Source: an uncultured Gammaproteobacteria bacterium (GTDB taxonomy: Bacteria; Patescibacteriota; Microgenomatia; Woykebacterales; RBG-16-39-9b). From it: DNA of 64,000 bases. Made by a program: the position numbers and the translations under genes. Positions 1,992 through 47,372 of the stretch are shown here, in pieces; positions within the stretch are counted from its first letter, which is position 1, and each line of letters begins with the position of its first letter. The stretch lies in assembly GCA_964643435.1 (NCBI GenBank), contig CAZXPY010000001.1:74802-138801 (forward strand), given 5' to 3'. Under the pieces are notes generated by a model. The model ran no database searches and had not been told where the DNA came from. It worked only from the letters and a program-made list of their open reading frames with translations.

Positions 1992-2701
1992 TTGCGGTAA
2001 TTTTTGCTGGTGGTTTAGGTATCAGACTTCGACCCCTAACCCAAGTAACTCCAAAACCACTAATCCCTATTAAAAATAAACCCTTTTTGTGGTACCAGAT
2101 AAAATTGCTTTCTTCTTTTGGCGTAAAAAAATTTATTATTCTAACCGGTTATTTATCGAATCTGATCGAAGATTATTTTGAAGACGGTACAAAATTAGGA
2201 GTTGAGATTATTTATTCAAGAGAAAATTCCCCCCTCGGTACTGGCAGAGCGTTAAAATTGGCCTCACCCTTAATAAAAGAAAATTTCCTCCTTTTAAACG
2301 GAGACGATATTCCCATAATCGACTACGCTCTTTTTTTTGCAATTGTTAAAAGTGGTCAATTCCCGAATATAATAACCGTTCATAAAGGGGGAAAAAGAGG
2401 AAATTTAAAAGTTGATAAAAGAACTGGTTACGTGCTCTTCTATTCAAAGGTGAGAAACGAGAGTTTTAATTATGTCCACAGCGGTTTGTCGTTTTTTAAT
2501 AAAGATGTTCTAGATCTTTTACCAAAGGGTAGATATGATGTTGAGGAAGAATTATTTAATAAACTAGCTAAAAAGAAAAAATTAGTCTATTTTGAAGCTT
2601 TGGGTAGAACTTTATCTATCGGTACCTACCCACGCTTACGTCGAAGCCGTTTCTTGCTAGAACGCTTCATTATTAGTTATATTGATAATAAAGAAATTTA
2701 A
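1988..2701 (+). CDS. Sugar-1-phosphate nucleotidyltransferase (D-glycero-alpha-D-manno-heptose 1-phosphate guanylyltransferase, HddC-like)
   Basis: N-terminus MIAVIFAGGLGIRLRPLT..KPLIPI matches the NDP-sugar pyrophosphorylase signature GGxGTRL; 4-nt ATGA overlap with gmhA. Confidence 0.65.
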   Translation: MIAVIFAGGLGIRLRPLTQVTPKPLIPIKNKPFLWYQIKLLSSFGVKKFIILTGYLSNLIEDYFEDGTKLGVEIIYSRENSPLGTGRALKLASPLIKENFLLLNGDDIPIIDYALFFAIVKSGQFPNIITVHKGGKRGNLKVDKRTGYVLFYSKVRNESFNYVHSGLSFFNKDVLDLLPKGRYDVEEELFNKLAKKKKLVYFEALGRTLSIGTYPRLRRSRFLLERFIISYIDNKEI

Positions 2702-3414
2702 TGACTAAAATTGCAGTTGTTTTACCTACTTATAATGAAAAAGAGAATATCCAAAAAATTATTCCCCAAATTCTTTCCCAAAATAAAGATATATCAATAA
2801 TCGCCGTTGATGACAATAGTCCAGACGGTACGGGAAAAATACTGGATAACCTAGGTAAAAAATATAATGGTAGGGTGAAAACCCTGCATCGAAATAAAAG
2901 GGGAGTTGGTAGCGCAGTTAGGGATGGCCTAAAAGAAGCGTTAAGATTAAAGGCAGATTACGTAGTTCAGATGGATGCCGATTTTTCTCATCATCCAAAT
3001 TATCTCCCCTCTCTAATTAAGGGAATAAATAATGGGGTTGATGTTACGATTGGGTCTCGGTATGCAAAAGGAGGGGACATTATGAGTAGAAGTACCTTGC
3101 GTAATTTTATTTCAATGGCGGCAAATTTTTACAACCGTAGTTTACTTGGAGTTTGGGAAGTAAAAGATAGTGCTGGTGGTTTTAAATGCTCAAAGAGAGC
3201 TGTTTTGGAAGCAATAAATTTAGATACTTTTTTATCGAATGGCTATAGTATTGGGATCGAGCAGCTTTATCGAATTCACAGAAAAGGATTCAAAATGAAG
3301 GAAGTGCCGATTATTTTTAACGATCGAAATGCGGGTAATTCTAAAATGGATCTAAGGGAAATTTTAAAATATATAATTACTGTTTTAAGAATAAAGTTTA
3401 GTGGTTTTAAATGA
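2701..3414 (+). CDS. GT2 family polyprenyl-phosphate hexose synthase (Dpm1/GtrB/ArnC-like)
   Basis: VVLPTYNEKENI.., VDDNSPDGT, DxD-type motif QMDADFSHHP, about 237 aa with no transmembrane tail; typical Dpm1-like architecture. Confidence 0.75.
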   Translation: MTKIAVVLPTYNEKENIQKIIPQILSQNKDISIIAVDDNSPDGTGKILDNLGKKYNGRVKTLHRNKRGVGSAVRDGLKEALRLKADYVVQMDADFSHHPNYLPSLIKGINNGVDVTIGSRYAKGGDIMSRSTLRNFISMAANFYNRSLLGVWEVKDSAGGFKCSKRAVLEAINLDTFLSNGYSIGIEQLYRIHRKGFKMKEVPIIFNDRNAGNSKMDLREILKYIITVLRIKFSGFK

Positions 3415-9310: not shown

Positions 9311-9400
9311 AGCTTAATATTCTATCACGGTTGCGTAATAGCCACCACTAGTTTTTGAACCTGAATAATCTCCAATTATGGGGATTTTTGATAATGGGGG

Positions 9401-9433
9401 TTGACAAATACCTATCGTTATGTTTTTATAGCT
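9401..9433 (+). promoter_or_regulatory. Possible promoter in the 210-bp divergent secA / GT2 intergenic region
   Basis: TTGACA at 9401-9406 followed 19-21 nt later by TTTATA/TATAGC. The spacing is imperfect, so this is weak. Confidence 0.2.
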
Positions 9434-9520
9434 TCCGTTACCCCAAACGCCAGTATTCTTCACATTATTAACCCCAATTCTATTTTGACAATAGGAAGGG
9501 TTTTAACGTATTCTTAATAT

Positions 9521-10633
9521 GTGAAAATAGTCGTTATTATCCCCACGTACAACGAGAGAGAGAATATTGGTCCCTTAATTGATGCCCTTGAAGAAGAATT
9601 CGCTAAAATACCCCATGATTGCCATATCTTAGTAGTTGATGACAATTCTCCAGATAAAACCGCCCAAGTTGTAAAAGAAAAAATGGCCCAGTACGATGGA
9701 ATTTATCTCCTTACTGGTGCCAAAGCGGGTTTAGGTGCCGCTTATATCAGGGGAATGAAGTTTGCCAACGATAAACTCAAGGCGGACGCGGTTATGGAGA
9801 TGGATGCTGATTTTTCCCATAAACCTTCCGATGTCCCGAGATTAATTAAAGAACTGGACGAAGGTTACGATTTTGTTATTGGTTCGCGGCATATAAAGGG
9901 AGGCAGTATTCCCGCTGATTGGTCTTTGCTGCGTAAGCTAAACACAAAGGTAGCTAATTTGGTTGCCAGATATTTAGCCGGACTCTACCGGGTTAAAGAT
10001 TGTACCGCTGGATTTCGAGCGATTAATACGGCTCTTTTGCGAAAAATTGATCTAGATAATATCCGTACGAAAGGCTACTCCTTCCAAATCGGGATTTTAC
10101 ACGAGGCCATAAATGCAGGGGCGGTGATAAAAGAAGTGCCAGTTGATTTTATTGATCGAAAGAAAGGAGAAACAAAACTAGGATTTAATGTAAAAGAGCG
10201 GGTTCTTTTTATTTGGGACAGTATCTTAATTCGGTTTGAAAAAAGTGAAACTTTCTTTAAATTTGCCACGGTTGGTGCCACTGGAGTAGCGGTAAATTTA
10301 GGTTCACTTTTTATCCTTTACGAAAACTTTGGGATAATAAAAGAAATAGCATCGCCAATTGCAATTGAATTTTCAATAATTACGAATTTCCTTTTTAATA
10401 ATTCTTGGACCTTTAGTGAGCGAAAGGCAAGCTCACCTTTTTTAATAAAACTTATCAAGTTTAATATAGTTTCCTTGCTAGCTCTAATAGTTACTTACAC
10501 TACTTTTTTGATTACAACTCGCGTCTTTGGTGTATACTATCTAGTTGCTCAAAGTTTAGGAATTGTTTTGGCAATGCTTTGGAATTATTTTGTTAATTCA
10601 ATCTGGACCTGGAAAATAATAAAAGAAGGATAA
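9521..10633 (+). CDS. Fusion protein: GT2 polyprenyl-phosphate hexose synthase (Dpm1/GtrB-like) + C-terminal GtrA-like flippase domain
   Basis: GTG start. N-terminus IIPTYNERENI, VDDNSPDKT, MDADFSH. The C-terminal ~130 aa (from about nt 10240) are four hydrophobic helices typical of the GtrA family (..VGATGVAVNLGSLFILYE.. ..NNSWTF..). Confidence 0.7.
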   Translation: MKIVVIIPTYNERENIGPLIDALEEEFAKIPHDCHILVVDDNSPDKTAQVVKEKMAQYDGIYLLTGAKAGLGAAYIRGMKFANDKLKADAVMEMDADFSHKPSDVPRLIKELDEGYDFVIGSRHIKGGSIPADWSLLRKLNTKVANLVARYLAGLYRVKDCTAGFRAINTALLRKIDLDNIRTKGYSFQIGILHEAINAGAVIKEVPVDFIDRKKGETKLGFNVKERVLFIWDSILIRFEKSETFFKFATVGATGVAVNLGSLFILYENFGIIKEIASPIAIEFSIITNFLFNNSWTFSERKASSPFLIKLIKFNIVSLLALIVTYTTFLITTRVFGVYYLVAQSLGIVLAMLWNYFVNSIWTWKIIKEG

Positions 10634-10642
10634 AGCAAAATT

Positions 10643-11368
10643 ATGAAAGGCGTGGTTTTAGCTGGCGGAAAAGGTACAAGGCTCTACCCCCTAACCTTCG
10701 CTACTAACAAACACTTACTTCCAGTTTACGACAAACCAATGATTTTTTACCCAATCGAAACTCTTATAAGAGCGGGAATACGCGATATTATGGTTGTTAC
10801 TGGTGGTCCTCACGCTGGTCATTTTATTCACGTTTTAAAAAACGGGAAGGAATTGGGTATAAATCATCTTGAATTTACTTACCAGGAGAATGAAGGCGGT
10901 ATTGCTCACGCCCTTTCGTTAGCGGCTGATTTTGCCGATGGGGGCTCAATTACAGTTATTTTGGGGGACAATACTACCGATGCCAATATTAAAAAAGAGG
11001 TTGACAATTTTAAAGAAGGGGCCCTTATTTTTCTGAAAGAAGTCCAAGAACCCTCTCGTTTTGGTGTTCCTGTTTTTGACAGAAAAGGTAAAATTACTTC
11101 TATCGAAGAGAAACCAAAAAACCCTAAATCGAATATGGCAGTTACCGGTCTTTATATTTATGACGCTAAAGTTTTTGACTTTATTAAAAGGATCGAACCT
11201 TCAGATCGTGGAGAGCTAGAAATTACTGATGTTAATAATTTATATCTAAAAACCGGCCAATTAAATCACACTGTTTTACCGGGTTTTTGGTCTGATTCTG
11301 GTACTTTCGAAAGTCTTTTTCGTTCTAACCTTTTTTGGGCAACAAAAAAAGGTAAAATTTCTCTATGA
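10643..11368 (+). CDS. Short-form sugar-1-phosphate nucleotidyltransferase (RmlA/SpsI-like)
   Basis: MKGVVLAGGKGTRLYPLT..NKHLLPV signature; about 241 aa short form. Confidence 0.7.
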   Translation: MKGVVLAGGKGTRLYPLTFATNKHLLPVYDKPMIFYPIETLIRAGIRDIMVVTGGPHAGHFIHVLKNGKELGINHLEFTYQENEGGIAHALSLAADFADGGSITVILGDNTTDANIKKEVDNFKEGALIFLKEVQEPSRFGVPVFDRKGKITSIEEKPKNPKSNMAVTGLYIYDAKVFDFIKRIEPSDRGELEITDVNNLYLKTGQLNHTVLPGFWSDSGTFESLFRSNLFWATKKGKISL

Positions 11369-12318
11369 AGGTACTTATTACTGGAATCGCGGGTTTCGCC
11401 GGTAGTCACCTCGTCGATCTTCTTCTCACCTTTAAAAATCTAAAAATCTCGGGGACGGTTCTTGAAGAAAAAAATATCGAAAATATAGCCGCCCGCAAAG
11501 ACAAATTAGTTTTGTTAGCTGGTGATTTACGTGACGCATATTTTGTGGGTGAGACTATCAAAAAAATTAAGCCAGACCTTATTTTTCACCTAGCCGGTAT
11601 TTCTTCAGCGGCGGTCAGTTTACAAAAGCCAAAAGAGACTTTAGAGAGTAATATAAGCGCTAATTTTAATTTACTAGAAGCAATAAAAAATTACAGCAGG
11701 GAAAGTAAAGTCTTAATTGTTGGAAGCGCCGAAGAGTACGGTTTGGTGGCAGATAGGGATTTACCTATCGATGAAGAAACGCCGTTGCGTCCGGCTAACC
11801 TTTACGGCGTTTCCAAAATAGCCGTAGATTTTTTAGCCTTGCAGTATTTTTATTCTTATAAAATTAAAGTTGTTAGAATAAGACCTTTTAATCATATCGG
11901 TCCAAGACAGAAACCAGAGTTTGTGGTGGCTGATTTCGCCAACCAAATTGCTAAAATTATTTTAAATGAAACTTCTGCGTGGGTGCGCGTGGGTAATCTA
12001 GATGTAAAAAGAGATTTTACCGATGTTAGAGATATTGCCAGGGCGTACTGGCTAGCTTTAGAAAAAGGGCAATTCGGTGATGTTTATAATTTAGGTAGCG
12101 GCAAATCATATACAATTAGGACAATTCTACAAAAGTTAATAGATATTAGCGGTAGGAAGATAAAAATAAAACAGGACCCAGGAAAGTTACGTCCAGTTGA
12201 TATTCCAAATCTATTGTGTGATAATACAAAATTTGTGAAACAAACTGGTTGGCAGCCTACAATTCGGATTGACCAAAGTTTGAAGGACACGCTAGAATAT
12301 TTCAAGGTAAGCAAATGA
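11365..12318 (+). CDS. NAD-dependent epimerase/dehydratase, GDP-4-keto-6-deoxy-D-mannose reductase (Rmd)-like
   Basis: Rossmann N-terminus [12 protein letters not shown]; YxxxK SDR motif; lies immediately upstream of gmd with an ATGA overlap. Confidence 0.5.
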
Positions 12319-13289
12319 AAAAAGCACTGATAACTGGTGTTACCGGGCAAGACGGTTCCTACTTAGCCGAATTTCTAATAAAAAAAGGGTATCAAGTTTT
12401 TGGTTTAACAAGACGCAACAGTACCCCAAATTATGAGCGTATCGCTCATATTATTGAAAAAATTACCCTTCTCCAAGGGGATTTACTCGATGAACATTCC
12501 CTCACTAATGCGATTAAAGAAAGCGATCCTGACGAAGTTTATAACCTAGCGGCCCAGTCGTTTGTTCCTACCTCTTGGAACCAGCCAGTTTTAACTGGAG
12601 AATTTACTGCTCTTGGAGTAACAAGAGTTTTAGAAGCAATAAAGTTAATAAAACCTACGGCCCGGTTTTACCAAGCTTCTAGTTCCGAGATGTTTGGCAA
12701 GGTTTTAGAAGCTCCCCAAAACGAAAAAACCCCCTTTTATCCAAGAAGTCCCTATGGAGTTGCCAAAGTTTACGGCCATTGGATTACGGTGAACTACCGG
12801 GAGTCTTATGGGCTATACGCTGTTAGTGGTATTTGCTTTAACCACGAATCACCGAGAAGAGGATTAGAATTTGTTACCAGAAAAATAAGTAACGGGGTTG
12901 CTAGAATTAAATTAGGATTACAAAAAGATTTACACCTAGGAAATCTAGAAGCAAAAAGAGATTGGGGGTACGCACTCGACTATGTTGAAGCAATGTGGTT
13001 AACCCTGCAACAAAAAAAGCCTCAAGATTTTGTAATTGCCACGGGGAAGAGCCATTCGGTAAGAGATTTCGTTGAGGTGGCCTTTGAACACGTGGGAATT
13101 AAGAATTGGAATAGGTATGTAGTAGGGGATAAAAAATTAATTAGATTGGCAGAGGTTGACTACTTAGTTGGTGACGCAACGAAAGCAAGAAGAATCTTAA
13201 ATTGGAAGCCTAAGGTTAGTTTTAAAGAATTAGTTAAAATGATGGTAGATGCCGATTTGAAGTCTGAACAAAAAAATCTTAGACTTTAA
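12315..13289 (+). CDS. gmd: GDP-mannose 4,6-dehydratase
   Basis: [33 protein letters not shown] and NHESPRRG motifs are classic Gmd. Confidence 0.85.
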
Positions 13290-13394: not shown

Positions 13395-13835
13395 ATGAAA
13401 ATTGATAAAGACGAAATTGAGGATTGTAAAAAAGTACCAACATTTGACCAAAACGGAGAGGAAAATGGTTTTTTAACCGAACTTTTTAAAAAGGGTAATA
13501 AAACTACTGCTTATCTTTCAGGAGTAAAAACTGGCGGTTTCAAAGGCTATCATCTTCACCGTATTCGAGCGGCTAATTATGTCTGCATCAAAGGTAAGAT
13601 GAAAATAATTTTATACCTTAGAGACGGAGGCCGTTACGTACGAAAAGAATATATTTTAGACGCAAATAAGCCTCAAAGACTATTTATCCCACCCTTAGTA
13701 CCAACTGGGCTACAAAATATTGCTTCCGAAGAATCCTGGCTTATTAATTATCCTTACCCTCCCTATGACCCGGCTCTTTTAGATGAACAAATTGAATATA
13801 CGCAAGAAGAACTGGATAAAGGAGTAGTTAAGTGA
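13395..13835 (+). CDS. Cupin-fold NDP-4-keto-6-deoxyhexose isomerase/epimerase (WxcM/FdtA-like or divergent RmlC)
   Basis: About 146 aa; GYHLHR (His-x-His) and a beta-rich cupin pattern; sits directly before rmlB/rmlD. Confidence 0.45.
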   Translation: MKIDKDEIEDCKKVPTFDQNGEENGFLTELFKKGNKTTAYLSGVKTGGFKGYHLHRIRAANYVCIKGKMKIILYLRDGGRYVRKEYILDANKPQRLFIPPLVPTGLQNIASEESWLINYPYPPYDPALLDEQIEYTQEELDKGVVK

Positions 13836-21717: not shown

Positions 21718-23802
21718 ATGATTTGGCGATTTAAGCCGTTAGATATTTTTTTCGTTTTTTTAATCTCCGTTTTACCATTAATAATTTTTTTGCCCAGTTT
21801 TTTCAAAGGTATAGTTGCCGGTGGAGACATTGGGCTTTATTGGTTTTATGGCTCCTTAATTAAAGAGTCGGTTTTAAAATTTGGACAACTGCCTCTTTGG
21901 AACCCTTATTACACTAGCGGTGCACCTTTGGACGGTAATAGTGTAACTACCTTTTTTTATCCACCTACTTGGCTTTTTTTATTTTTTAATGAGGTAGCAA
22001 CAATTAATGTTTTGATCGTTGGGCATTTAATTTTACTAGGCGAGAGTGCGTATTTTTTTGCAAGGAGCACGCTTAATCTCTCAGCAACATCATCTTTTCT
22101 GGTCTCTTTAGGTATTATGTTAACCCCAAAAGTTTTCAATCATATTTATGGGGGTCATTACGCCTTTGTTTTTGCCTTCGCTTGGGTACCAATTGTTTTC
22201 TTTTTAATATTTCGAATAGTTAAAAGCGCCAAAATAATAAAAGACGCTCTTCTTTTAGGATTAGTGTTTTCCCTAATGTATTTTTCAATGATTCAGGTGG
22301 CTTTCTATACTTTTTTTATTTTTCTCCTGTATCTGCTTTACGAATTATTCTTATTCCATTTTGAGCAAAATTTTCAAATTAAACGGACAATCAAAGAAGC
22401 AACTAGACTTGCAAAGGTATTTTTAAGCACTTTATTTTTTTTCGTAGGCTTTAGTGCAATTAGTCTGCTACCAACCCTTTTTTACGCCCAAAATTCTGTT
22501 CGTAAGGGGCTAACATTATTCGAATCAGCTATTCCCGCAATTTATCCAGATACTTTTCTAAAACTCTTTTATATAAAACCAGACGCTTTTGAACCTTTTG
22601 AGGTGGTAATTTATGTTGGTATCTTGACTTTAATTTTCGCTGTTATCGGAATTTTTAAAGGTAGAGACAAGCGAATTTTGTTTCTTCTATTACTAGCTAC
22701 CTTTGCGGCTTTTTTTTCACTAGGAGCAAATGGGTCGCTCTACCGGGTTTTTTATTACTTGGTTCCTGGATTTAGTTGGTTTCGGGGGCCAATAAGAATC
22801 TGGTTCTTTTTTGCTTTTTCGGCAAGTATCTTAGCTGGTTTTGGTGTTGATTGGTTATTAAATTTGAAAGTGGTAAAGAAAATTGCTTGGGTTAAATTTA
22901 CTTTTGCCTCATTACTTATTTTTTTATTTTTCGGGCATCTTTGGCTTTATGATAAGGATTATAGTAAACCGCATCAACTTAACGAAATAACTCGGTTCAG
23001 CCCCATTCTCGAAAATTTACCAGAGCAAAACAACTTATTTAGAATCTATTCAGTAGATCGTTCTACCTCATATATTGAAGCTAAAAATAAAAATTTACAT
23101 TACGCTGATGGTGGAGACGTAGCACCACTAAAGAATTATTCAGATTTTATAAACGCTTCCCTAAATTATCACTATGAAGGCTATTCCTTATCAGTACCGC
23201 CAAATCAAGTTATCTACCCAGAAAGTAGGTACTATCAAAAACCAAACCCAGACCCCAACCTTTTAGGTATGTTAAACGTAAAATATATAATTTCTCCTGA
23301 AAATCTTGAAAATCTCGATTTAGAATTTAAAAAAGAAATTGGAAGATACCGACTTTACGAAAATAAAAGATTCCTTCCAAGAGCGTTTGTTGTCGGTAAT
23401 TTAAAATCGGTAAGTAAGTTAGATCCATACACCTTAAGAGGATTTGACCTAAGATCCCAAGCAATTGTTGAAGGGCAATTAAATAGTAAAGAGATCAAGA
23501 ATGACTTTTATAAGGAAGCAGAGATTACTTTTTATTCACCAAACGAAGTTAAAATAAAAGTCAATTTGGATAAAGAAGGGTTATTGGTTTTGGCTGATAC
23601 CTATTATCCAGGTTGGAAAGCATTCGATAACGGTTCTTTAGTAAAAATTTATAAAACTAACGCTGTTGTTCGGGGTGTTATTTTAAGTAGGGGCGATCAT
23701 AATTTGAGATTTATCTACGATCCCCCTCTGTTTAAGTTGGGCTTAGTGATAAGTGGCGCTACGCTCATTATTACTTTGTTTATTCTTAAGAAAAGGGTTT
23801 AA
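21718..23802 (+). CDS. Large polytopic membrane protein, YfhO/GT-C-like putative lipid-carrier-dependent glycosyltransferase
   Basis: 694 aa with more than 10 predicted TM helices, then a soluble C-terminal domain containing YYPGWKA; followed directly by a Dpm1-like GT2. Confidence 0.4.
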   Translation: MIWRFKPLDIFFVFLISVLPLIIFLPSFFKGIVAGGDIGLYWFYGSLIKESVLKFGQLPLWNPYYTSGAPLDGNSVTTFFYPPTWLFLFFNEVATINVLIVGHLILLGESAYFFARSTLNLSATSSFLVSLGIMLTPKVFNHIYGGHYAFVFAFAWVPIVFFLIFRIVKSAKIIKDALLLGLVFSLMYFSMIQVAFYTFFIFLLYLLYELFLFHFEQNFQIKRTIKEATRLAKVFLSTLFFFVGFSAISLLPTLFYAQNSVRKGLTLFESAIPAIYPDTFLKLFYIKPDAFEPFEVVIYVGILTLIFAVIGIFKGRDKRILFLLLLATFAAFFSLGANGSLYRVFYYLVPGFSWFRGPIRIWFFFAFSASILAGFGVDWLLNLKVVKKIAWVKFTFASLLIFLFFGHLWLYDKDYSKPHQLNEITRFSPILENLPEQNNLFRIYSVDRSTSYIEAKNKNLHYADGGDVAPLKNYSDFINASLNYHYEGYSLSVPPNQVIYPESRYYQKPNPDPNLLGMLNVKYIISPENLENLDLEFKKEIGRYRLYENKRFLPRAFVVGNLKSVSKLDPYTLRGFDLRSQAIVEGQLNSKEIKNDFYKEAEITFYSPNEVKIKVNLDKEGLLVLADTYYPGWKAFDNGSLVKIYKTNAVVRGVILSRGDHNLRFIYDPPLFKLGLVISGATLIITLFILKKRV

Positions 23803-23803
23803 A

Positions 23804-24517
23804 ATGGAAGAGATGTATTTTTCAGTAGTTGTACCAACGTATAATGAAGAAAAAAGAATTGAAAATACTTTAAGAGAAATATATAAATATTTTGCCAAGA
23901 GGGGAAAAAATTTTGAGGTAATAGTGATTGATGATGGAAGTAGCGATGATACAGTTAGACTCTTGCAGGATTTAAAAAAGAAGTTTAAGAATTTAAAAAT
24001 TTTGAAACAGGGAAAAAATTATGGTAAGGGTTGGGCGGTAAAAAGAGGTGTATTGGCTGCAAAGGGAAAGTATATTCTTACTAAAGATGCCGATCTTTCA
24101 ACACCAATGACCGAAACCGATAAGCTTCTAAAAGAATTAGAAACTGGTGCTGACTTAGCAATATCCTGTCGAATTCATCCCGACGGTACTGATATGAGGT
24201 TCAGCCAACCCCTAATTCGAAGAATAGTTGGCAAAATATTTTCAAAGCTAGTAAATATTTTCGTTATAAATGGAATTAAAGATACTCAAGCCGGTACTAA
24301 AATGTATAAGGCGAACGCTGCTAAAAAACTGTTCCGAAAGCAAAAAATCAAAAGAATCGCCTTTGATGTTGAAATTTTATATTTGGCGAAAAGAGCGGGT
24401 ATGGGAATTGCTCAAATCCCGGTTATGTGGTCAACTGACGGAAAGTCCAGGCTACGATTTTTTAAAGAATTAAGAGTTTTGTGGGATATTTTTACCATTA
24501 AGCTTAATCACAAATGA
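23804..24517 (+). CDS. GT2 polyprenyl-phosphate hexose synthase (Dpm1-like)
   Basis: VVVPTYNEEKRIENTL, IDDGSSDDT, DADLS. The ATG at 23804 is preferred over the track start 23753, because the upstream stop is at 23800-23802. Confidence 0.75.
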   Translation: MEEMYFSVVVPTYNEEKRIENTLREIYKYFAKRGKNFEVIVIDDGSSDDTVRLLQDLKKKFKNLKILKQGKNYGKGWAVKRGVLAAKGKYILTKDADLSTPMTETDKLLKELETGADLAISCRIHPDGTDMRFSQPLIRRIVGKIFSKLVNIFVINGIKDTQAGTKMYKANAAKKLFRKQKIKRIAFDVEILYLAKRAGMGIAQIPVMWSTDGKSRLRFFKELRVLWDIFTIKLNHK

Positions 24518-26070
24518 GAATTAGAAAAATTTTTGAATCAGAAAACTTCTTTATCGCTTTAATTTTATTAATAAATTTGATCAAGTTATGGAGAATAGAT
24601 GACGGTTTTGTTCTGGGAGAACCAGATGAAAGAAATTATGTAGATGTTGTTCGTAATTTACGTAGTTCTCCTTACCCGCAGTTTGACGGTACGCCTTTTT
24701 TACACTCTTTACCTTTATTCCATTATTTAGCTCTGCCTCTAAGTTTCATCTTTCCAGTCCAATACTTAGCGGTGAGATTGGTTTCTTGGTTAGCAAGTCT
24801 GCTGTTAGCCTTAGTAATTTACTGGTACTTAAAAGAAAAATTCTCTACTATTACTGGTTTAGCCGGTGCTCTAGTTTTTAGCGTGTTACCGTTGTCGGTT
24901 TTCTATACAAGACTCGGCTTGCTCGAGAGTTTGCTCTCTTTTTTTGTGATTGCTTTTATTTTTAGTTTGGATAAGGCCGTAAATAGTAAAAGTGAAAAAT
25001 GGGCGGCGATTAGTGGAGTTTTTTTAGCAGCCGCAGTTTTGACAAAATACACGGCCCTGCCTTTTATTGCTCTACCAGTAATTATTTTTGCTTTTATTGC
25101 TCTTAGGCAGCTACAAAACAAAGGAATACGATTTCTTCTCAAGCTTAAAGAGTGGTATAGATTAGCTAAAATTCAGGCAGTTACACTTCTAACAAGTTTT
25201 TTGGTTGTTTTTCCACCAATAATTTTTATTTACTCACACGACCCTTTAGAATTTAGAACCCAACTGCGATATATATTATCTTTTGGTCAGGAAAGGACTA
25301 ATTTCGCTGCCCTTAAATTTCTCCTGCCAAATCTTTCTGAATATTTAAGTTGGCCAATATTAATTTTATTTATTTTAGGCTTAGCTTATTTATTTTTTAG
25401 TTTAAGAATAAAAAAAATTTGGATTTTTTTTGTTGGTTTTTTATTAATCGCTTTTTTTGTTTTAAGAGCCAATCTAATTGGTCCGCGCTATTTTATGATA
25501 CTGACTCCTTTTGTTTCAGTGTTTGCCGGTATCTGTTTGGGTAAGATTCTTGAGACGGTGGGGTCTAAAGTTTGGTGGTTAGCACCATTAGTTCTTGTCT
25601 CAATAGCTGGTTTAATATCTCCTTCCTCTTGGTTAGCTCTTCAATCAACCCGTCACGATATAATTGAGCAGGTAGGAGCTTTTATAAGAGAGCAGCGTAA
25701 AGACGAATGGGTTTTTAGCAATTATTGGGCAAGTGCCTTTGTAGACCCGATTGGTACTTATAAAATAACTTGGCTTAGTGGTGGACTGGCAGATAGTACT
25801 AGTTACAGTGGAAAAAAAGAAAGTTTGTATGAGAAGATTGACGAGCCATCGTTAAATAAAATTATGAAAGAAGGAGGCTTTGTAATCTTAGAAGAAAACT
25901 ACTCACTAGATTTAATTAATAGTTCGGCTCGGGAAAGTGCCCTCTCACCCATAAAAGGTTTATACCAGCCAATTAAAATTTTTGAAGATCGGCAGCCTAA
26001 TTACCCTTTTCCTAAAAAAATTCCTAACAAAATATCAGTTTATAAAATACCGTCCCAAGGAGAAGAATAA
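24514..26070 (+). CDS. GT-C fold membrane glycosyltransferase (PMT_2/ArnT-like, GT39/GT83)
   Basis: 518 aa; N-terminal loop then multiple TM helices; the pattern (..RL.S.LAS.L.A.VIY.YLK..F....GL..AL...) is typical of ArnT/PMT-family dolichyl/undecaprenyl-phosphate-sugar transferases. Confidence 0.5.
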   Translation: MRIRKIFESENFFIALILLINLIKLWRIDDGFVLGEPDERNYVDVVRNLRSSPYPQFDGTPFLHSLPLFHYLALPLSFIFPVQYLAVRLVSWLASLLLALVIYWYLKEKFSTITGLAGALVFSVLPLSVFYTRLGLLESLLSFFVIAFIFSLDKAVNSKSEKWAAISGVFLAAAVLTKYTALPFIALPVIIFAFIALRQLQNKGIRFLLKLKEWYRLAKIQAVTLLTSFLVVFPPIIFIYSHDPLEFRTQLRYILSFGQERTNFAALKFLLPNLSEYLSWPILILFILGLAYLFFSLRIKKIWIFFVGFLLIAFFVLRANLIGPRYFMILTPFVSVFAGICLGKILETVGSKVWWLAPLVLVSIAGLISPSSWLALQSTRHDIIEQVGAFIREQRKDEWVFSNYWASAFVDPIGTYKITWLSGGLADSTSYSGKKESLYEKIDEPSLNKIMKEGGFVILEENYSLDLINSSARESALSPIKGLYQPIKIFEDRQPNYPFPKKIPNKISVYKIPSQGEE

Positions 26071-36797: not shown

Positions 36798-37929
36798 GCA
36801 AAAGAATCTGAGAATAGCAATTGTCGCCGATGTCATTAACGAACATTCCGGCGCCAGGGCACCTATCAGGTTAGCAACTTTTCTGAATAAAGAAAGTGCG
36901 GATATCACTTTTTTTGCTAGCAGCCACTTACTAGATTTAAATTTAAAAGAGGAGCTTCAAAAGAAGGGAATAAAAGTTTTTGTTTTGCCTTCAAGTAGAA
37001 TTCCTTTTTTGGGGCGTTTCTTTGGCGCCCTTAAACTATTCTTATATTTGAAAGAGGGGGATTTTGACATAATTTCGCTACAAAGTAGCTCATTATTATA
37101 TGCAATTATTAGGTTAACCGGCGTCCGAATTGTAAAAACCTATTACGGAACTCAATTAGATTTGGGTTTAAATATGAGAGATGGAATAATTAGCTTAATT
37201 CCGTCTTGGATTTTAAAATTTGTAATAATCCTAAGAGAAAAGTTGTTTTTTTTAATCTCTAACAAAGTTATCGCTATAAGTAAATATTTAGTAACTGAAG
37301 CCAAACAAATATATAATAAAAATATAGAATACGTTTACTTAGGGGTTGATCTGTTCAAAGTGGCTGAAGTAGCAGAAAATAAGAATAATAAAAAAATCAT
37401 TTGTTTGTCGGTAAGTAGAATAGTACCGTATAAAGGGTTCCACTTTCTTATAAAGGCTTTTTTGACTGTGAATAAGAAAGTACCCGATTTAAGACTTTAT
37501 ATAGTTGGTACCGCACCGTTTCCAAAGTATTTGTCTTTCTTAGATAAAATCAAAAATGAAAATGTAAAAATCTTATTGGACGTTGGTGACGAGCACTTAG
37601 GAAGTTTATACAAAAGTTGTGATATCTACGCTACTTTTGATCAATGGGTTCCTTGGAGTTTAGCTCCACTGGAGGCTAGCCTTTATTCAAAACCTCTGGT
37701 TGGTATAAAAGCCGGAGCAATGGGAGAAATAATAACTCATAATAAAAACGGGCTTTTGGCCAGCAATTTGGACGAATTTACTGATTATCTTTATAAACTC
37801 TCTACCGAAAAGAAATTAAGAGAACGTTTAGGGAAAGAAGCAAAAAGGTTAGCCGAAAAATTTTCTTGGAAAAGAACGGCGCAAGAGTATTTGGAAGTTT
37901 TTAGGGGGGTTCTTGAAAAGAATAATTAG
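36790..37929 (+). CDS. GT4 family glycosyltransferase
   Basis: GT-B fold; ..PWSLAPLEASLYSKPLVG... Confidence 0.65.
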   Translation: MIKQKNLRIAIVADVINEHSGARAPIRLATFLNKESADITFFASSHLLDLNLKEELQKKGIKVFVLPSSRIPFLGRFFGALKLFLYLKEGDFDIISLQSSSLLYAIIRLTGVRIVKTYYGTQLDLGLNMRDGIISLIPSWILKFVIILREKLFFLISNKVIAISKYLVTEAKQIYNKNIEYVYLGVDLFKVAEVAENKNNKKIICLSVSRIVPYKGFHFLIKAFLTVNKKVPDLRLYIVGTAPFPKYLSFLDKIKNENVKILLDVGDEHLGSLYKSCDIYATFDQWVPWSLAPLEASLYSKPLVGIKAGAMGEIITHNKNGLLASNLDEFTDYLYKLSTEKKLRERLGKEAKRLAEKFSWKRTAQEYLEVFRGVLEKNN

Positions 37930-40033
37930 TTTTTTTAAGAAATTTTACCAAGAAATTTTAATTATTTTATTTTTCCTAATTGTCGCGATTATCTATACCT
38001 ATCCTCTCTTTTTCAGATTAAATGAAGTTGTTTGGGGCTACGTAGGGGATAATTTTGGGGCTATTTGGTATGTTTGGTGGTTAAAGTATTCAAGTCTAAA
38101 AGGGTTGCCTTCTGATTTTACAAATCTTGTAAATTTTCCGTTTGGTCTAAAAATCGATGCTTCTTCAAATATTGAACCAATCTGGCAGCTTTTCTTACAG
38201 TACTTTGGCTTTCTCCTTGGAGAGATATTTACCTTTAATTTTCTAATTTTCTTAAGTTTCCCGCTTTCCGCAATAACAATGTACGCACTTATTCATTATT
38301 TAACAAAAGATAAATTGGCGGCTACTTTAGTTGCGATAGTTTATATGCTTTTGCCTTATCATTTCTGGCAAAGCTATCAACACGTCGCTCTTTCTCAGAT
38401 TCAATGGTTACCACTTTATGTTTTGGCACTTTTGAAACTAGATTCTAACCCCAATTTTCGAAATTCTCTTTTTGCCGCCGTAAGTTTTCTGCTTGTTGCC
38501 CTCTCTTCTGTCTATCATGGTTATTTTATGGTTCTTTTTACAATAAGTTTTGTTATTTTCAAAATTTTGTATAAACTTCTTACCGAAAGAAAAAATTATC
38601 TTAACTTCAATAGGCTAAAATATTTTAGTTTGACACTCATTTTTATAATTTTGGTAATTTCTCCCTTCGCATATAAATTTTATCAAACAAGATCAGTTAC
38701 TTCTTTAGGTGCTACCGAAGCCTATAAAAGACCAATCGAAAATTTATTAGGTCTCTCAGCACGACCGTGGGATTTTTTTATTCCGCCAAGCGACCACCCA
38801 TTCTTCGGTAAATATGAACATGGTCTCTACGCAAAAATTCGTACCTTTAGTAATGATTACAAAACAATTAGTGCTTTTTTGCCCGAGCGGATTATGTACG
38901 TCGGAATTCCAGCGTTTCTTCTAGCTTTAGTGGGAATTTATTTTTCTCTAAAAGGTAGACGCAAAGAACTAATTATAGTTTTGCTCGGGGTTAGTGCATT
39001 TTTAGCCGCCACTGCAGCCCCTCCGTTTGTTATTATTAAAGGTAAGACAATATATCTTCCTTCTTATTTTTTTTACCAGGTCCTACCAATAATTAGGGTT
39101 TACGCTCGTTTAGGGATTGTACTTGATCTTTTGATTTTACTTTTCGCCGGATTTGGCTTTAGTTTTTTGTTCTCTAAAATTAAGAATAAGATACTTTTAT
39201 TTGGGTCTTTTTGTTTGTTAATAGCTTTATTTCTCTTTGAGTTTGCTAATTTTCTTCAACCTAAAATTTCTGATATTAGTAAGATTCCAGAAACGTACGA
39301 ATGGTTAAAAGGGCAAAGAGGTTTAGTAAATATTATTGAATACCCAAGGACGTTTAATGTAGCCGCTAGTCTACTTTATCAAAGATATCACGAAAAGGGG
39401 ATTTTTAACCTCTCCGGAAGCTTTGCTAGCACTTCTCCTTATACCCCGCTTTGGGATATAATTGAAAACCCAACAAGTTCTGATACTGCTAAAGTTCTTT
39501 CTGCCTTGGGTTTAGATTATGCTTTGATTCACGTTAAGACTCCTTACAATATGTTGAATCCTTTTGACGAAATAGGATTGAGCCAAATAGTCGAAGAGGG
39601 TAGATGGATCCCTTTGCGTGGTAATGGAATTTCCGGTTTTGAACTTGCTTCGTCTTTTGATGATGGGTTTTTCGTGAAAATAACCGCCAATCCTGATAAA
39701 CTAATAATTTTTGAAGAAGAAAGTGTAAGATTCTTACCAAATAGTAGAGATTGGTTATGGAAAGATTCTCGCAATACCCTCTATTTCTTAAATATAAAAA
39801 AACAACCAATATTTATTAATTTAAAATTTGATTATTTTGGTTTTGAAAGAGAGAATCTTAAATCAGTATTTAGATATAAAGAAGACATGATTCAAAAAGA
39901 AATCGAATTAAAAAGTCTTGAAGGGCCTTTAAAAATTAATCAGGGTATAAGTTCTTTAAGATTTGAAATCAATGATATGGGGACTGAATTCGGTGTAAGA
40001 AATATATCTGTTTCTGAATTTAAAGCTAAGTAA
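37913..40033 (+). CDS. Large polytopic membrane protein, GT-C-like putative glycosyltransferase (paralog of 47364..49175)
   Basis: 706 aa with more than 12 TM helices and a C-terminal soluble domain. Its N-terminal motif YPLFFRLNEVVWGYVGDNFGAIWYVWWLKYS parallels FPLIFKFTTNIPGVDEDSPTHVWYLWWFKFS in the minus-strand paralog. Confidence 0.4.
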   Translation: MKRIISFFKKFYQEILIILFFLIVAIIYTYPLFFRLNEVVWGYVGDNFGAIWYVWWLKYSSLKGLPSDFTNLVNFPFGLKIDASSNIEPIWQLFLQYFGFLLGEIFTFNFLIFLSFPLSAITMYALIHYLTKDKLAATLVAIVYMLLPYHFWQSYQHVALSQIQWLPLYVLALLKLDSNPNFRNSLFAAVSFLLVALSSVYHGYFMVLFTISFVIFKILYKLLTERKNYLNFNRLKYFSLTLIFIILVISPFAYKFYQTRSVTSLGATEAYKRPIENLLGLSARPWDFFIPPSDHPFFGKYEHGLYAKIRTFSNDYKTISAFLPERIMYVGIPAFLLALVGIYFSLKGRRKELIIVLLGVSAFLAATAAPPFVIIKGKTIYLPSYFFYQVLPIIRVYARLGIVLDLLILLFAGFGFSFLFSKIKNKILLFGSFCLLIALFLFEFANFLQPKISDISKIPETYEWLKGQRGLVNIIEYPRTFNVAASLLYQRYHEKGIFNLSGSFASTSPYTPLWDIIENPTSSDTAKVLSALGLDYALIHVKTPYNMLNPFDEIGLSQIVEEGRWIPLRGNGISGFELASSFDDGFFVKITANPDKLIIFEEESVRFLPNSRDWLWKDSRNTLYFLNIKKQPIFINLKFDYFGFERENLKSVFRYKEDMIQKEIELKSLEGPLKINQGISSLRFEINDMGTEFGVRNISVSEFKAK

Positions 40034-46276: not shown

Positions 46277-47372
46277 AATTTTAATTTCATCACATTCCTA
46301 CGTTGTAGGATTAAATCAACAAAAAATAGAAGCTCTTTCCAAAATAGACGGCCTTAAGATTAGTTTAGTAGTACCAACTACTTGGAAAGCACCGCTACGT
46401 TACACCGAACTTGAAAAGAGAACCGCTAAAACTTACCAAATTATTCCTCTTAATACTCGTTTTAACGGAAATAACGACCGTTATTTTTTCCCGTTTTTTT
46501 CACTATTCAAAATTTTCTGGAGGCTACGTCCAAAAATTGTTCATATCGAAGAAGAACCTTGGTCAGTTTCTTTACTTGAATTTAGTTTTTTAAGTAGAAT
46601 TTTTGCGGCAAAAACTATTTTTTTTACTTGGGAGAATATTGAGCGACAACACCGGTTTTGGTATAAATTATTTGAGAAGATAAACTTAAAACTAGCTTCT
46701 GGCGCGATTGCCGGTAATAGAGAAGCCAAAGATCTATTACTAAAAAAAGGTTTTCAGAAACCTATTTTAGTCTTACCGCAACTTGGTGTAGATCTTAACT
46801 CCTTCAAGAGAGAAAAAGAAAAAAATGAAAAATTCACTATTGGTTTTGTTGGTAGATTTGAAGAGCAAAAGGGAGTAATGGTCTTGCTCGATGCTGTTAA
46901 ACAGTTGCCCTTCTCCTATAAACTTTTGCTGGTTGGAAGCGGACTCTTGAAAGAAAAAATTGATTTCTATATAAAAGAAAACAACTTATTAGATAAAGTA
47001 GAGTTGATTCAAGGAGTAACTCATAACCAAGTCCCTTCTTATCTAAGCAGAATGGATTTATTAGTTTTGCCTTCTCTAACAACTTCAGTTTGGAAGGAGC
47101 AGTTCGGCCATGTTTTAGTTGAAGCAATGGTTTCTAGTGTGCCCGTTATTGGTTCAGATAGTGGGGCTATTCCAGAAGTTATCGGAGACGCAGGACTTAT
47201 TTTTAAAGAAGGAAACAGCAATGACTTAGCAAAAAAAATAGAACAATTTTTTAGAAACAAGAATTTACGCGAAGAAATGATAAAAAAAGGATTGGAAAAA
47301 GTAAAGGAAAATTATACCCAAGAAAAAATCGCTGCGGAAACTTATAATTTCTATCAAAAGATTTTAATATAA
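46269..47372 (+). CDS. GT4 family glycosyltransferase
   Basis: ..EQFGHVLVEAMVSSVPVIGS... ATG 46269 (8-nt overlap with upstream gene) is preferred over track start 46203. Confidence 0.65.
   Translation: MVRILISSHSYVVGLNQQKIEALSKIDGLKISLVVPTTWKAPLRYTELEKRTAKTYQIIPLNTRFNGNNDRYFFPFFSLFKIFWRLRPKIVHIEEEPWSVSLLEFSFLSRIFAAKTIFFTWENIERQHRFWYKLFEKINLKLASGAIAGNREAKDLLLKKGFQKPILVLPQLGVDLNSFKREKEKNEKFTIGFVGRFEEQKGVMVLLDAVKQLPFSYKLLLVGSGLLKEKIDFYIKENNLLDKVELIQGVTHNQVPSYLSRMDLLVLPSLTTSVWKEQFGHVLVEAMVSSVPVIGSDSGAIPEVIGDAGLIFKEGNSNDLAKKIEQFFRNKNLREEMIKKGLEKVKENYTQEKIAAETYNFYQKILI

Follow-up and report, generated by a model that had tools for sequence, protein, structure and literature searches.

A bacterial GT2-GtrA fusion with the architecture of type III DPMS is a probable single-chain polyprenyl-phosphate hexose synthase

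The window analyzed here, a 64-kb stretch of bacterial DNA, contains a gene that joins a Dpm1-like family 2 glycosyltransferase (GT2) to a four-helix, GtrA-like membrane domain in one open reading frame (Table 1), and it raises the question of whether a single protein might both synthesize a polyprenyl-phosphate sugar and help it across the membrane. An initial annotation of the locus had recognized this combination and took the fusion to imply that synthesis and flipping are obligately coupled. We find that the GT2-GtrA fusion belongs to a known class and is an ordinary bacterial representative of it, since its architecture has been crystallized in an archaeal enzyme, the dolichyl-phosphate mannose synthase (DPMS) of Pyrococcus furiosus (PfDPMS), and is common in bacteria. 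It is probable, in our view, that the protein is a single-chain polyprenyl-phosphate hexose synthase with the architecture and fold of PfDPMS, and that its transmembrane pocket aids the passage of the product across the membrane to a GT-C transferase.

Table 1 Coordinates of the fusion gene, its predicted domains and residues, and neighboring or candidate partner features in the window
Feature	Position	Strand	Basis or remark
Paralogue of the catalytic domain without TM segments; 237 aa, DADFSHHP	2701..3414	+	Identity, clade HMM
Divergent intergenic region, secA (-) to fusion gene	9311..9520	.	Probable promoter region
GT2-GtrA/DPMS-TM fusion gene	9521..10633	+	370-aa ORF, Pfam two-domain match, phmmer and Foldseek matches to 5MLZ
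GT-A catalytic domain and interface helices, predicted cytoplasmic	9521..10225	+	Residues 1-235; PF00535, AF2 secondary structure
Extended DXD motif DADFSHKP	9803..9826	+	Residues 95-102; predicted to bind metal, diphosphate, and sugar; maps onto PfDPMS 89-DADLQHPP-96
GtrA/DPMS-type transmembrane domain	10247..10609	+	PF04138, AF2 helices, internal repeat
N259 = PfDPMS Asn248, polar pocket, TMH1	10295..10297	+	Mapping; 51/51 clade
N289 = PfDPMS Asn277, polar pocket, TMH2	10385..10387	+	Mapping; 51/51 clade
N355 at PfDPMS Arg341 position, phosphate-binding pocket	10583..10585	+	Mapping; 51/51 clade
RmlA-like sugar-1-P nucleotidyltransferase, SDR epimerase/dehydratase, GDP-mannose 4,6-dehydratase	10643..13289	+	NCBIfam; directly downstream, co-oriented
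YfhO-like multi-TM protein	21718..23802	+	PF09586 YfhO
PMT_2/PMT-family GT-C membrane protein	24514..26070	+	Pfam PMT_2 5.6e-13, PMT 3.8e-10
706-aa multi-TM protein	37913..40033	+	Paralogue of 47364-49175(-)
603-aa multi-TM protein	47364..49175	-	Paralogy to 37913..40033
DUF2079 protein	49214		Pfam; GT-C candidate
PMT_2, short TM-less Dpm1-like GT2, PMT	51432-53036, 53037-53762, 53737-55065	+	Pfam, hydropathy

The gene begins with a GTG start one codon past an upstream in-frame stop, and the N-terminus of its product (MKIVVIIPTYNE) agrees with the consensus of homologues. An opposite-strand ORF at 10075-10281(-) was rejected as a gene, as it lies wholly inside the conserved coding sequence of the fusion. 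The Pfam scan and AlphaFold model that the initial annotation had proposed as checks both came out in its favor. Both halves scored well over their thresholds, PF00535 (Glycos_transf_2) at residues 5 to 174 with 95.7 bits (cutoff, 23.3), and PF04138 (GtrA_DPMS_TM, a family name taken from the type III DPMS architecture) at residues 247 to 364 with 83.3 bits (cutoff, 26.1), spanning model positions 1 to 117 of 117. The AF2 model (pLDDT 88.8, pTM 0.78) has GT-A secondary structure and four long C-terminal helices (residues 243-269, 274-297, 307-336, and 340-363). The transmembrane (TM) domain is therefore not an anchor of one or two helices, and, given the PF04138 match, neither of the findings that the initial annotation had named as speaking against it (a C-terminal region without a GtrA match, or one of only 1 to 2 helices) was obtained. 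The helix pairs of this domain form an internal repeat, with a score of 61 against 25 ± 5 in 500 shuffles, none of which reached it (z ~7). Its Lys and Arg residues precede TMH1 or fall in loop 2-3 and the C-terminal tail, loops 1-2 and 3-4 being short and uncharged, a distribution that fits a predicted N-in/C-in topology. The window contains no other GtrA-type domain.

The closest known structure is PfDPMS, a type III DPMS (PDB 5MLZ, 5MM0, 5MM1, and 9EP0) (PMC5526996, PMC12992685). A phmmer search of the PDB aligned the fusion over its full length to 5MLZ (E = 6.4e-55, 39% identity); the best PDB matches of the AF2 model, again over the full length, were 5MLZ, 9EP0, and 5MM1 (TM-scores of 0.71 to 0.78), and Foldseek gave TM-scores of 0.75/0.78 for the full-length comparison with 5MLZ. 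Both proteins combine a GT-A domain and two interface helices with a TM domain whose four helices form two repeated pairs, and the fusion thus has the single chain, GT-A plus four TM helices as two helix pairs, that marks type III enzymes (Gandini et al. 2026, PMC12992685). Pfam, phmmer, AF2, and Foldseek all agree with a Dpm1-like GT2 and a four-helix GtrA-like domain in one ORF. What did not survive is the implied novelty of the fusion: the architecture is that of a crystallized type III DPMS (PMC5526996) and has thousands of homologues, and the idea of a combined synthase and translocator is already in print (PMC12992685). PfDPMS differs in coming from a hyperthermophilic archaeon rather than a bacterium, and because of the bacterial context the lipid used by the fusion is presumably polyprenyl (undecaprenyl) phosphate and not dolichyl phosphate; that the acceptor belongs to the polyprenyl-phosphate class we infer strongly.

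PfDPMS and the fusion have in common the DAD motif and the acceptor-phosphate and A-loop residues. Positions D95, D97, F98, S99, H100, and P102 of DADFSHKP are invariant in the 51 diverse fused homologues on which our clade counts are based, and 95-DADFSH-100 falls within the general DPMS signature DAD-X1-X2-H (DAD-[LF]-[QS]-H), where X1 is Leu or Phe, X2 either Gln or Ser, with an invariant His (PMC5526996 supplement). The motif departs from the strict type III form DADxQHPP (x = L/F/Y), with the metal ligand Gln93 of the PfDPMS sequence DADLQHPP replaced by Ser99 and Pro95 by Lys101. The DPMS contact residues are retained as E12, Y10, D41, G70, L71, R123, R138, T142, R213, and K219, and among the guanosine, mannose, metal, acceptor-phosphate, and A-loop residues, Y10, D41, G70, L71, D95, D97, H100, R123, R138, R213, and K219 are invariant in all 51. 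The acceptor-phosphate set of PfDPMS (Arg117, Arg131, and Ser135) is present as R123, R138, and T142, the last being Ser in 49 of the 51 clade members, and the A-loop lock (Glu12, Arg202, and Lys208) as E12, R213, and K219. The type III SRY motif reads SRH in the window protein (SRY in 49 of the 51 clade members), and an invariant G-Y-x-F-Q takes the place of KIL, the motif that carries Lys178 in type III enzymes. In the HMMER alignment, which is locally somewhat ambiguous here, Lys178, a mannose and phosphoester contact in PfDPMS, lines up with Ser187 (mostly Ala in the clade), and Phe177 corresponds to Tyr. None of the NCBIfam equivalogs reached its cutoff: the best, AglJ, scored 85 bits against 325, and PgfS, ArnC, PpgS, and the haloarchaeal Dol-P-hexose transferase were also far under theirs, so that neither the protein nor its sugar can be named from them.

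The intergenic region between the divergent secA and fusion genes is the probable promoter region heading a plus-strand glycan operon. It contains a promoter-like TTGACA-18-TATTCT at 9485-9514, and no terminator-like site occurs between the fusion gene and the next gene 10 bp downstream (both by consensus matching only). The downstream GDP-mannose 4,6-dehydratase (Gmd) scored 440.6 bits against an NCBIfam cutoff of 415, and its presence in the window implies that GDP-mannose is made. Since the gene next to the fusion is RmlA-like and not ManC-like, the operon context is not specific for GDP-mannose. A Patescibacteria MAG (GCA_023485445.1) has the same gene order of secA, fusion, NTP-transferase, SDRs, CofD, and GlmS; together with the best named homologue, this synteny points to a Patescibacteria origin of the window. 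Neither in the window nor in this syntenic locus does a GT-C gene lie beside the fusion. Upstream in the window, a protein with 0 TM segments by hydropathy is paralogous to the catalytic domain, being 40% identical to it over 240 aa (E = 3e-50) and scoring 190 bits on the clade catalytic HMM.

Candidates for a GT-C partner are found elsewhere in the window. Of the three large membrane proteins put forward by the initial annotation as third components, the one at 21718 does have a YfhO match (PF09586, 66.2 bits, limited to the 80 C-terminal model positions, with DUF6541 sub-threshold), but no family match of significance was obtained for those at 37913 and 47364(-). The former had no Pfam or PDB match, and the latter had sub-threshold matches only (PMT_2, E = 0.012; DUF6541, E = 0.013); with Pfam relaxed to E ≤ 10, nothing above threshold appeared for either. 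These two proteins are 26% identical over 516 aa (E = 3e-27), and hhalign aligned the pair with the PMT_2 group of the window over 89 columns at a probability of 77.7%, which hints at a possible GT-C nature for 37913..40033. Better candidates had been missed, namely, the PMT_2/PMT proteins at 24514, 51432, and 53737 and the DUF2079 protein at 49214, and we regard the first of these as a candidate consumer of a polyprenyl-P-sugar. Searches of the PDB with phmmer gave no match for 37913 or 21718 (E ≤ 10) or for 24514 (E ≤ 1). Several of the GT-C candidates have a short GT2 neighbor of their own, as with the GT2 at 23753-24517 that precedes 24514..26070 and the synthase with 0 TM segments (hydropathy) at 53037-53762 beside the candidates of 51432..55065, and none adjoins the fusion gene.

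Within the TM domain, the Asn248 and Asn277 that form the polar pocket of type III DPMS are kept as N259 and N289, and an Asn, N355, stands at the position of Arg341, which is Asn in all non-Thermococcales type III enzymes (type III in the sense of PMC12992685). The position of the gating Phe338, three residues before N355 and tolerant of Tyr in type III enzymes, is occupied by Met352, and in the 51-member clade by Thr (33), Met (16), and Leu or Ile (2). Among 89 small proteins (≤200 aa) related to the TM domain, 73 of them confirmed as stand-alone, the N259 position is Asn in 86 and the N289 position in all 89, and stand-alone relatives with 35 to 51% identity to the domain have all three positions in common with it. 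Because the pocket Asn residues are near-invariant in small, mostly stand-alone proteins, the constraint on them exceeds anchoring. A crystal of PfDPMS (9EP0) holds flipped Dol-P-Man in the equivalent pocket, and the TM domain has been proposed as the flippase of the product, a role for which the evidence is a single crystal state obtained in detergent; the domain is dispensable for catalysis, and phage SfX GtrA and Rv3789 are described as being without the pocket motifs (PMC12992685). A translocation role for the TM domain of the fusion, as proposed in the literature, thus has moderate support, and we treat flippase activity, both of this domain and of GtrA in general, as a hypothesis.

The reading that we favor would work as follows. 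With its DAD motif and a divalent metal, the GT-A domain would move a sugar from its nucleotide donor, most likely mannose from GDP-mannose, onto a polyprenyl phosphate, presumably undecaprenyl phosphate, gripped between the two interface helices. The four-helix GtrA-type domain would anchor the enzyme, and its intramembrane pocket lined by N259, N289, and N355 would probably take the sugar-phosphate headgroup and help it cross the membrane. GT-C transferases of the PMT/PMT_2 type (or GT87 type) would then use the product to glycosylate envelope proteins or polymers. Characterized members of the PMT family use polyprenyl- or dolichyl-P-mannose (Pfam description).

Homologues occur in a range of arrangements. 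Those with 58 to 62% identity, from other phyla, have a GT87 gene 74 to 81 bp away or an overlapping PMT_2 gene. Characterized members of GT87 use polyprenyl- or dolichyl-P-mannose. A natural GT2-GtrA-PMT_2 triple fusion (P0128) is 59% identical to the window protein over 364 aa, and other natural fusions combine GT2-GtrA with PMT/PMT_4TMC or GtrA with PMT_2 without a synthase. The three-component logic invoked by the initial annotation is reflected in these adjoining genes and fusions. Stand-alone GtrA relatives and TM-less paralogues are both abundant, and in GTDB the relatives of the catalytic domain are mostly unfused; in two GTDB loci (L014 and L058) the TM-domain match is in a separate overlapping or adjacent ORF. 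GTDB representative contigs contain no near-identical locus (best, 55%), so the genome from which the window comes is not one of these representatives. No GT-C gene was detected within 10 kb at two proteobacterial loci with a phmmer panel of limited sensitivity, the negatives of which (L001, L008, and L009) are weak. In the literature we found no characterized bacterial GT2-GtrA fusion and nothing on Patescibacteria glycosylation by a GT2-GtrA enzyme, and a search of papers for motif strings such as DADFSH returned nothing relevant.

Split arrangements and common stand-alone versions of both halves might suggest that the fusion is an assembly or gene-calling artifact, or a recent, functionally meaningless accident of one lineage in which a lost stop codon merged two genes, but we give this a vanishingly small probability. 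The survey of related genomes that had been proposed found at least 7,982 of 8,000 scored candidates at E ≤ 1e-10, and the best 120, from several phyla and 363 to 424 aa long, all carry both Pfam domains. The linker and interface helix between the domains are conserved among homologues, AF2 is confident across the junction, and the crystallized archaeal enzyme is the same continuous chain, which together effectively refute a merged-gene artifact. An appreciable, if lesser, possibility is that the architecture and mechanism are as we propose and that the sugar is not mannose but glucose, GlcNAc, heptose, or a 6-deoxyhexose supplied by the island's many sugar-nucleotide enzymes. GT2 polyprenyl-P glycosyltransferases of 20 to 40% identity use other donors (GtrB, UDP-Glc; ArnC, UDP-Ara4FN; PpgS, GalNAc; and AglJ), all of them sub-threshold matches; neither Lys178, which contacts mannose, nor the metal ligand Gln93 is retained, the adjacent genes encode an RmlA-like nucleotidyltransferase and SDR enzymes, and PfDPMS itself has some activity with GDP-Glc. 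Yet the full-length match that leads by a wide margin is to a proven GDP-Man enzyme, the equivalents of Asp89, His94, Arg117, Leu69, and Gly68 are invariant, with DAD-F-S-H inside the DPMS signature, and close homologues are linked to GT87 and PMT/PMT_4TMC domains. We predict mannose as the transferred sugar with moderate confidence.

The invariance of three intramembrane Asn residues across 51 diverse fused proteins, and their near-invariance in small relatives that mostly have nothing to anchor, argue against a TM domain that is a mere anchor and lipid-docking platform, with flipping performed by another protein or by none, and we consider that reading unlikely. Fusions of the GtrA domain to synthase-free PMT_2 GT-C proteins, which already have many TM helices, and the anchoring of yeast DPMS by a single helix point in the same direction. 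In its favor, a role for TMH4 of PfDPMS in anchoring and in pre-organizing the lipid chain was proposed in 2017, and the isoprenoid chain rests on this helix in the 5MM1 complex. PfDPMS TM deletions and the pocket mutants N277M and F338Q keep wild-type synthase activity, the gating Phe338 is not conserved in the window protein or its clade, the flippase activity of GtrA has never been reconstituted, and the role of Rv3789 is disputed. We continue to favor a pocket that aids passage of the product.

The TM domain of the fusion shares its Pfam family (PF04138) and a four-helix N-in/C-in form, predicted for the fusion, with GtrA, GtcA, and Rv3789, whose systems follow the same genetic logic of synthase, then GtrA, then GT-C; these are small separate proteins, whereas the domain of the fusion is covalently joined to the synthase. 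GtrB (Synechocystis sll0501, 5EKP), ArnC (9BHC and others), and CsbB/GtlA resemble the fusion in their GT2 GT-A domain, DAD motif, and interface helices, and make a polyprenyl-P-monosaccharide on the cytoplasmic face. They differ in using UDP-sugars, in having two C-terminal TM helices for tetramerization rather than a GtrA-type four-helix domain, and in needing a separate GtrA or ArnE/F; against GtrB and ArnC the AF2 model reaches a structural identity of 16 to 23% and a TM-score of roughly 0.5 to 0.55. Eukaryotic DPM1 (type I/II) and mycobacterial Ppm1 match the fusion in the DAD signature, with Ser at X2, but both are without a GtrA-type domain. DPM1, which has at most one TM helix, relies on DPM2 and DPM3 as separate subunits, and Ppm1 is joined to, or associates with, a membrane domain of unrelated type. 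The TM-less paralogue in the window is closer to this layout than the fusion is. The product of DPM1 and Ppm1 feeds GT-C mannosyltransferases (PMC3485146). A conceptual analogue is MprF, in which a lipid-modifying synthase and a translocator of its product form one polypeptide (PMC12992685); its folds and substrates are unrelated to those of the fusion, and both of its activities are experimentally supported. That fusion implies obligate coupling is not borne out, in view of the full activity of PfDPMS without its TM domain (PMC12992685), the TM-less paralogue in the window, and the prevalence of unfused catalytic-domain relatives and truly stand-alone small TM-domain relatives.

As an annotation, the result is minor and adds one more member to a crystallized, widespread enzyme class. 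An architecture like that of PfDPMS is abundant across bacteria, mesophilic lineages and Patescibacteria among them; a motif-based survey in 2026 reported type III DPMS from hyperthermophilic archaea only (PMC12992685). The three pocket positions are conserved in fused and stand-alone relatives, and the GT2-GtrA-PMT_2 fusions join three steps in one chain. A wider reading, which we offer very tentatively and think doubtful, is that the Asn pocket is not peculiar to the type III enzymes of hyperthermophilic archaea but is a common functional element of a large GtrA subfamily, mostly bacterial, and that the one GtrA domain of the island may also dock or translocate for TM-less synthases nearby. 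The subfamily would comprise stand-alone forms and forms fused to a synthase, to a PMT_2 GT-C, or to both; six or so TM-less Dpm1-like synthases are encoded near the fusion. If true, one translocation mechanism would serve all of these forms, against the published view that type III DPMS and GtrA must differ. Genetically tractable bacterial systems, with point mutants of N259, N289, and N355, would offer a route to the question of how polyprenyl-P-monosaccharides cross the membrane.

The initial annotation described the product of the fusion gene as a Dpm1-like GT2 domain joined to a four-helix GtrA-like domain, and this description is correct. Pfam places Glycos_transf_2 (PF00535; 95.7 bits) at residues 5-174 and GtrA_DPMS_TM (PF04138; 83.3 bits, cutoff 26.1) at residues 247-364, the latter spanning the full model. 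An AlphaFold2 model with 51 homologues as input was confident (pLDDT 88.8, pTM 0.78). Besides a GT-A domain it contains a pair of amphipathic helices (136-152, 224-241) as well as four long helices (243-269, 274-297, 307-336, 340-363), so that the C-terminal region has both a GtrA match and more than one or two helices. The two helix pairs form an internal repeat, with an ungapped 52-residue alignment scoring 61 compared with 25 +/- 5 for shuffled sequences, a score reached by none of 500 shuffles. The distribution of basic residues (K/R type), ahead of TMH1, within loop 2-3 and in the C-tail, fits an N-in/C-in topology. The N-terminus, MKIVVIIPTYNE, agrees with the consensus of homologues. 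A promoter-like site, a consensus match only, ends 7 nt upstream of the GTG; transcripts starting from it would be leaderless or have a very short leader.

Residues 1-364 align with the dolichyl-phosphate mannose synthase of Pyrococcus furiosus (PfDPMS; E = 6.4e-55, 39% identity). With the predicted structure as query, Foldseek ranked the PfDPMS entries (5MLZ, 5MM0, 5MM1, 9EP0) at the top as full-length matches (TM-score 0.71-0.78), whereas ArnC and GtrB came next (about 0.5), through the catalytic domain only. PfDPMS is the 2017 founder of "type-III DPMS," in which a GT-A domain is covalently linked to four TM helices in two pairs (PMC5526996); its TM domain has been termed GtrA-like and the enzyme proposed to moonlight as translocator of its own product (PMC12992685), a relation echoed in Pfam's name for the family (GtrA/DPMS transmembrane domain). 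Given that proposal, the "two-in-one synthase and flippase" reading of the initial annotation had already been published, and it is still a hypothesis. The window protein adds a bacterial member, probably from Patescibacteria, to a class that is already known and crystallised.

Type III is defined by three motif groups: DADxQHPP; Arg117 (SRY), Arg131, Ser135 and Lys178 (KIL); and Asn248, Asn277 and Phe338, in PfDPMS numbering (PMC12992685). For the first two groups, the window protein has DADFSHKP, S-R-H, R138 and T142, with Ser187 at the Lys178 position (HMMER alignment) within an invariant G-Y-x-F-Q; its TM-domain positions are N259, N289 and Met352. N355 occupies the position of Arg341, where all non-Thermococcales type-III enzymes have Asn. 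In 51 diverse members of the clade, D95, D97, F98, S99, H100, P102, S122, R123, R138, R213 and K219 are invariant in the catalytic domain and N259, N289 and N355 in the TM domain, and the Phe338 position is Thr or Met. Because the residues at the Gln93, Lys178 and Phe338 positions differ, the protein fails the strict type-III definition, and we rejected that identity. It matches the general DPMS signature DAD-[LF]-[QS]-H from the 2017 supplement (PMC5526996) and retains the guanosine, mannose, acceptor-phosphate and A-loop residues. On this residue pattern we place it among bacterial PfDPMS-like polyprenyl-phosphate hexose synthases, an enzyme class that we assign with high confidence, and not among strict type-III DPMSs.

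Obligate coupling of synthesis and flipping, which the initial annotation took the fusion to imply, was not borne out. PfDPMS keeps full synthase activity after TM-domain removal or pocket mutations (PMC12992685), the window encodes a TM-less paralogue that stops where the TM domain of the fusion protein would start, and genomic relatives of the catalytic domain are mostly unfused. About five further short Dpm1-like GT2 proteins in the window have no TM helices; the only GtrA-type domain in the window is that of the fusion gene, and a ZIP transporter is the sole other small multi-TM ORF there. A search of 1.84 billion cluster representatives with only the TM domain as query yielded 3,409 relatives at E <= 1e-3 (718 at E <= 1e-10). 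The best 150 include natural permutations of the three-component system: a GT2-GtrA-PMT_2 triple fusion (P0128), GT2-GtrA-PMT/PMT_4TMC fusions (P0134, P0204), GtrA-PMT_2 fusions (P0263, P0266, P0201) and reversed GtrA-GT2 proteins (P0220, P0253). That fused, reversed, split and triple-fused forms all occur indicates that the association is modular and facultative.

P0128 and the window protein have 59% identity over all 364 aligned residues and share the DADFSHKP and GYxFQ motifs; P0128 is therefore an orthologue-level relative physically joined to a GT-C domain. On contigs with homologues at 58-62% identity, a GT87 gene precedes the homologue at a distance of 74-81 bp, and a PMT_2 gene is close by; on others the 3' end of the homologue and the beginning of a PMT_2 gene overlap. 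Fusion and adjacency together provide strong backing for a predicted pathway from synthase through GtrA-type domain to PMT-type GT-C.

The transferred sugar is uncertain. Characterised GT87 enzymes take polyprenyl- or dolichyl-phosphate mannose, as do characterised PMT enzymes (Pfam description), and since both families are linked to relatives of the window protein, we lean slightly toward mannose. The presence of Gmd two genes downstream implies a supply of GDP-mannose; the gene directly after the fusion gene is RmlA-like, not ManC-like, and no NCBIfam equivalog scanned with the window protein reached its cutoff. In a syntenic Patescibacteria locus, the corresponding operon contains a dTDP-sugar isomerase (RmlC) gene, and by analogy the 146-aa ORF may encode a short cupin-type sugar isomerase. 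The TM-less paralogue, which sits between a putative NDP-heptose or hexose module, immediately upstream, and a methyltransferase gene, may make a different polyprenyl-phosphate sugar. The first ORF of that module may be a genuine fusion, or else two genes at the window edge joined in the ORF call.

Three large membrane proteins had been put forward as third components. The YfhO-like protein does match YfhO (66 bits, C-terminal end of the model only; DUF6541 sub-threshold), but the other two have no significant match in Pfam or PDB. These two are paralogues (26% identity over 516 aa, E = 3e-27) of 600-700 aa, in which a soluble C-terminal part comes after about 11-13 hydrophobic segments, and have a weak profile link (77.7% probability) to the PMT_2 proteins of the window. 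From these features they are plausible GT-C proteins and may represent an undescribed GT-C-like family. The PMT_2/PMT proteins and the DUF2079 protein are clearer candidates that had been missed. None of the candidates adjoins the fusion gene and several adjoin their own short GT2, so that each is a candidate partner only.

Features of the window discussed in the text
Feature	Position	Strand	Remarks
GHMP kinase ORF	59-1369	+	first ~100 residues match C-terminal part of transaldolase/fructose-6-phosphate aldolase; remainder GHMP kinase
Putative NDP-heptose or hexose module	59-2701		GHMP kinase (HddA match sub-threshold), GmhA-like SIS protein, NTP-transferase
TM-less paralogue of catalytic domain	2701-3414	+	237 aa, 40% identity, DADFSHHP
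Candidate promoter region	9485-9520		TTGACA-18-TATTCT at 9485-9514
Glycan-biosynthesis island	~9500-57000	almost wholly +	nearly 50 kb, about 35% GC region
Fusion gene	9521..10633	+	370 aa, GTG start
146-aa ORF	13395-13835	+	fills sole gap in operon downstream of Gmd
GT-C/synthase/GT-C unit	21718-26070	+	compact, without GtrA gene
YfhO-like protein	21718-23802	+	candidate third component
Short GT2	23753-24517	+	overlaps YfhO-like gene by 50 nt, PMT_2 gene by 4 nt
PMT_2/PMT proteins	24514-26070, 51432-53036, 53737-55065	+	candidate third components
Wzx-like flippases	27886-29178, 42868-44307		
Membrane protein	37913-40033	+	paralogue of 47364-49175
Membrane protein	47364-49175	-	paralogue of 37913-40033
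DUF2079 protein	49214-50695		candidate third component
Arn-like module	51432-57084	+	PMT_2 GT-C, short TM-less GT2, second PMT-type GT-C, DegT aminotransferase, UDP-GlcNAc 3-dehydrogenase-like oxidoreductase

The surrounding island encodes about 8 GT4 and about 8 GT2 glycosyltransferases, sugar-nucleotide genes of rhamnose, GDP-mannose, UDP-GlcA and UDP-xylose type, GlmS, YvcK and seven GT-C-like membrane proteins in addition to its flippases. The tight overlaps around the short GT2 gene suggest translational coupling within that unit. The short GT2 of the Arn-like module is nearest to PgfS, PpgS and ArnC, and the module may serve to decorate an envelope component by way of lipid-linked amino sugars.

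Small proteins (<=200 aa) account for 89 of the best 150 TM-domain relatives, and 73 of these 89 have a Met start and no catalytic-domain remnant and are therefore true stand-alone GtrA-type proteins. The pocket asparagines are retained in the small relatives (N259 in 86/89, N289 in 89/89 and N355 in 77/89), so the pocket is a property of a GtrA subfamily and not of the fusion. Conservation of this kind argues for a role of the TM domain beyond anchoring, although that this role is translocation we consider possible at slightly less than even chances. The pocket fits poorly with a published statement, based on phage SfX GtrA and Rv3789, that GtrA proteins are without the pocket motifs (PMC12992685).

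How far the fusion has spread was a point raised in the initial annotation, and it proved widespread across several bacterial phyla: in a word-indexed search, 7,982 of the 8,000 candidates that were scored reached E <= 1e-10, giving at least 7,982 homologues. The best 120 all carry both Pfam domains (363-424 aa). Among these 120, the proteins with 56-62% identity belong to MAGs assigned to Patescibacteria, Nitrospirota, Dadabacteria and Verrucomicrobiota, and "dolichol-phosphate mannosyltransferase" is a frequent annotation in source records. One Patescibacteria MAG shares the gene order of the window (secA, fusion gene, NTP-transferase, SDRs, CofD, GlmS), and this synteny suggests a Patescibacteria source for the window. 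GTDB species representatives gave more than 600 matches; among the matches listed, full-length relatives occur in Proteobacteria, Oligoflexia, Chloroflexia, Bacillota and Patescibacteria, and the majority of Bacteroidota relatives have the catalytic domain only. Type-III DPMS is limited to a few hyperthermophilic archaeal orders according to PMC12992685, but once two or three of the motif positions are relaxed (Gln93 to Ser, Phe338 to Thr/Met), bacterial proteins of this architecture, with the pocket asparagines invariant, number in the thousands. This broad bacterial spread of a PfDPMS-like architecture, which departs from that archaea-only picture, is among the observations most worth keeping, together with the conserved asparagine pocket that stand-alone GtrA relatives share and the triple fusions that occur naturally.
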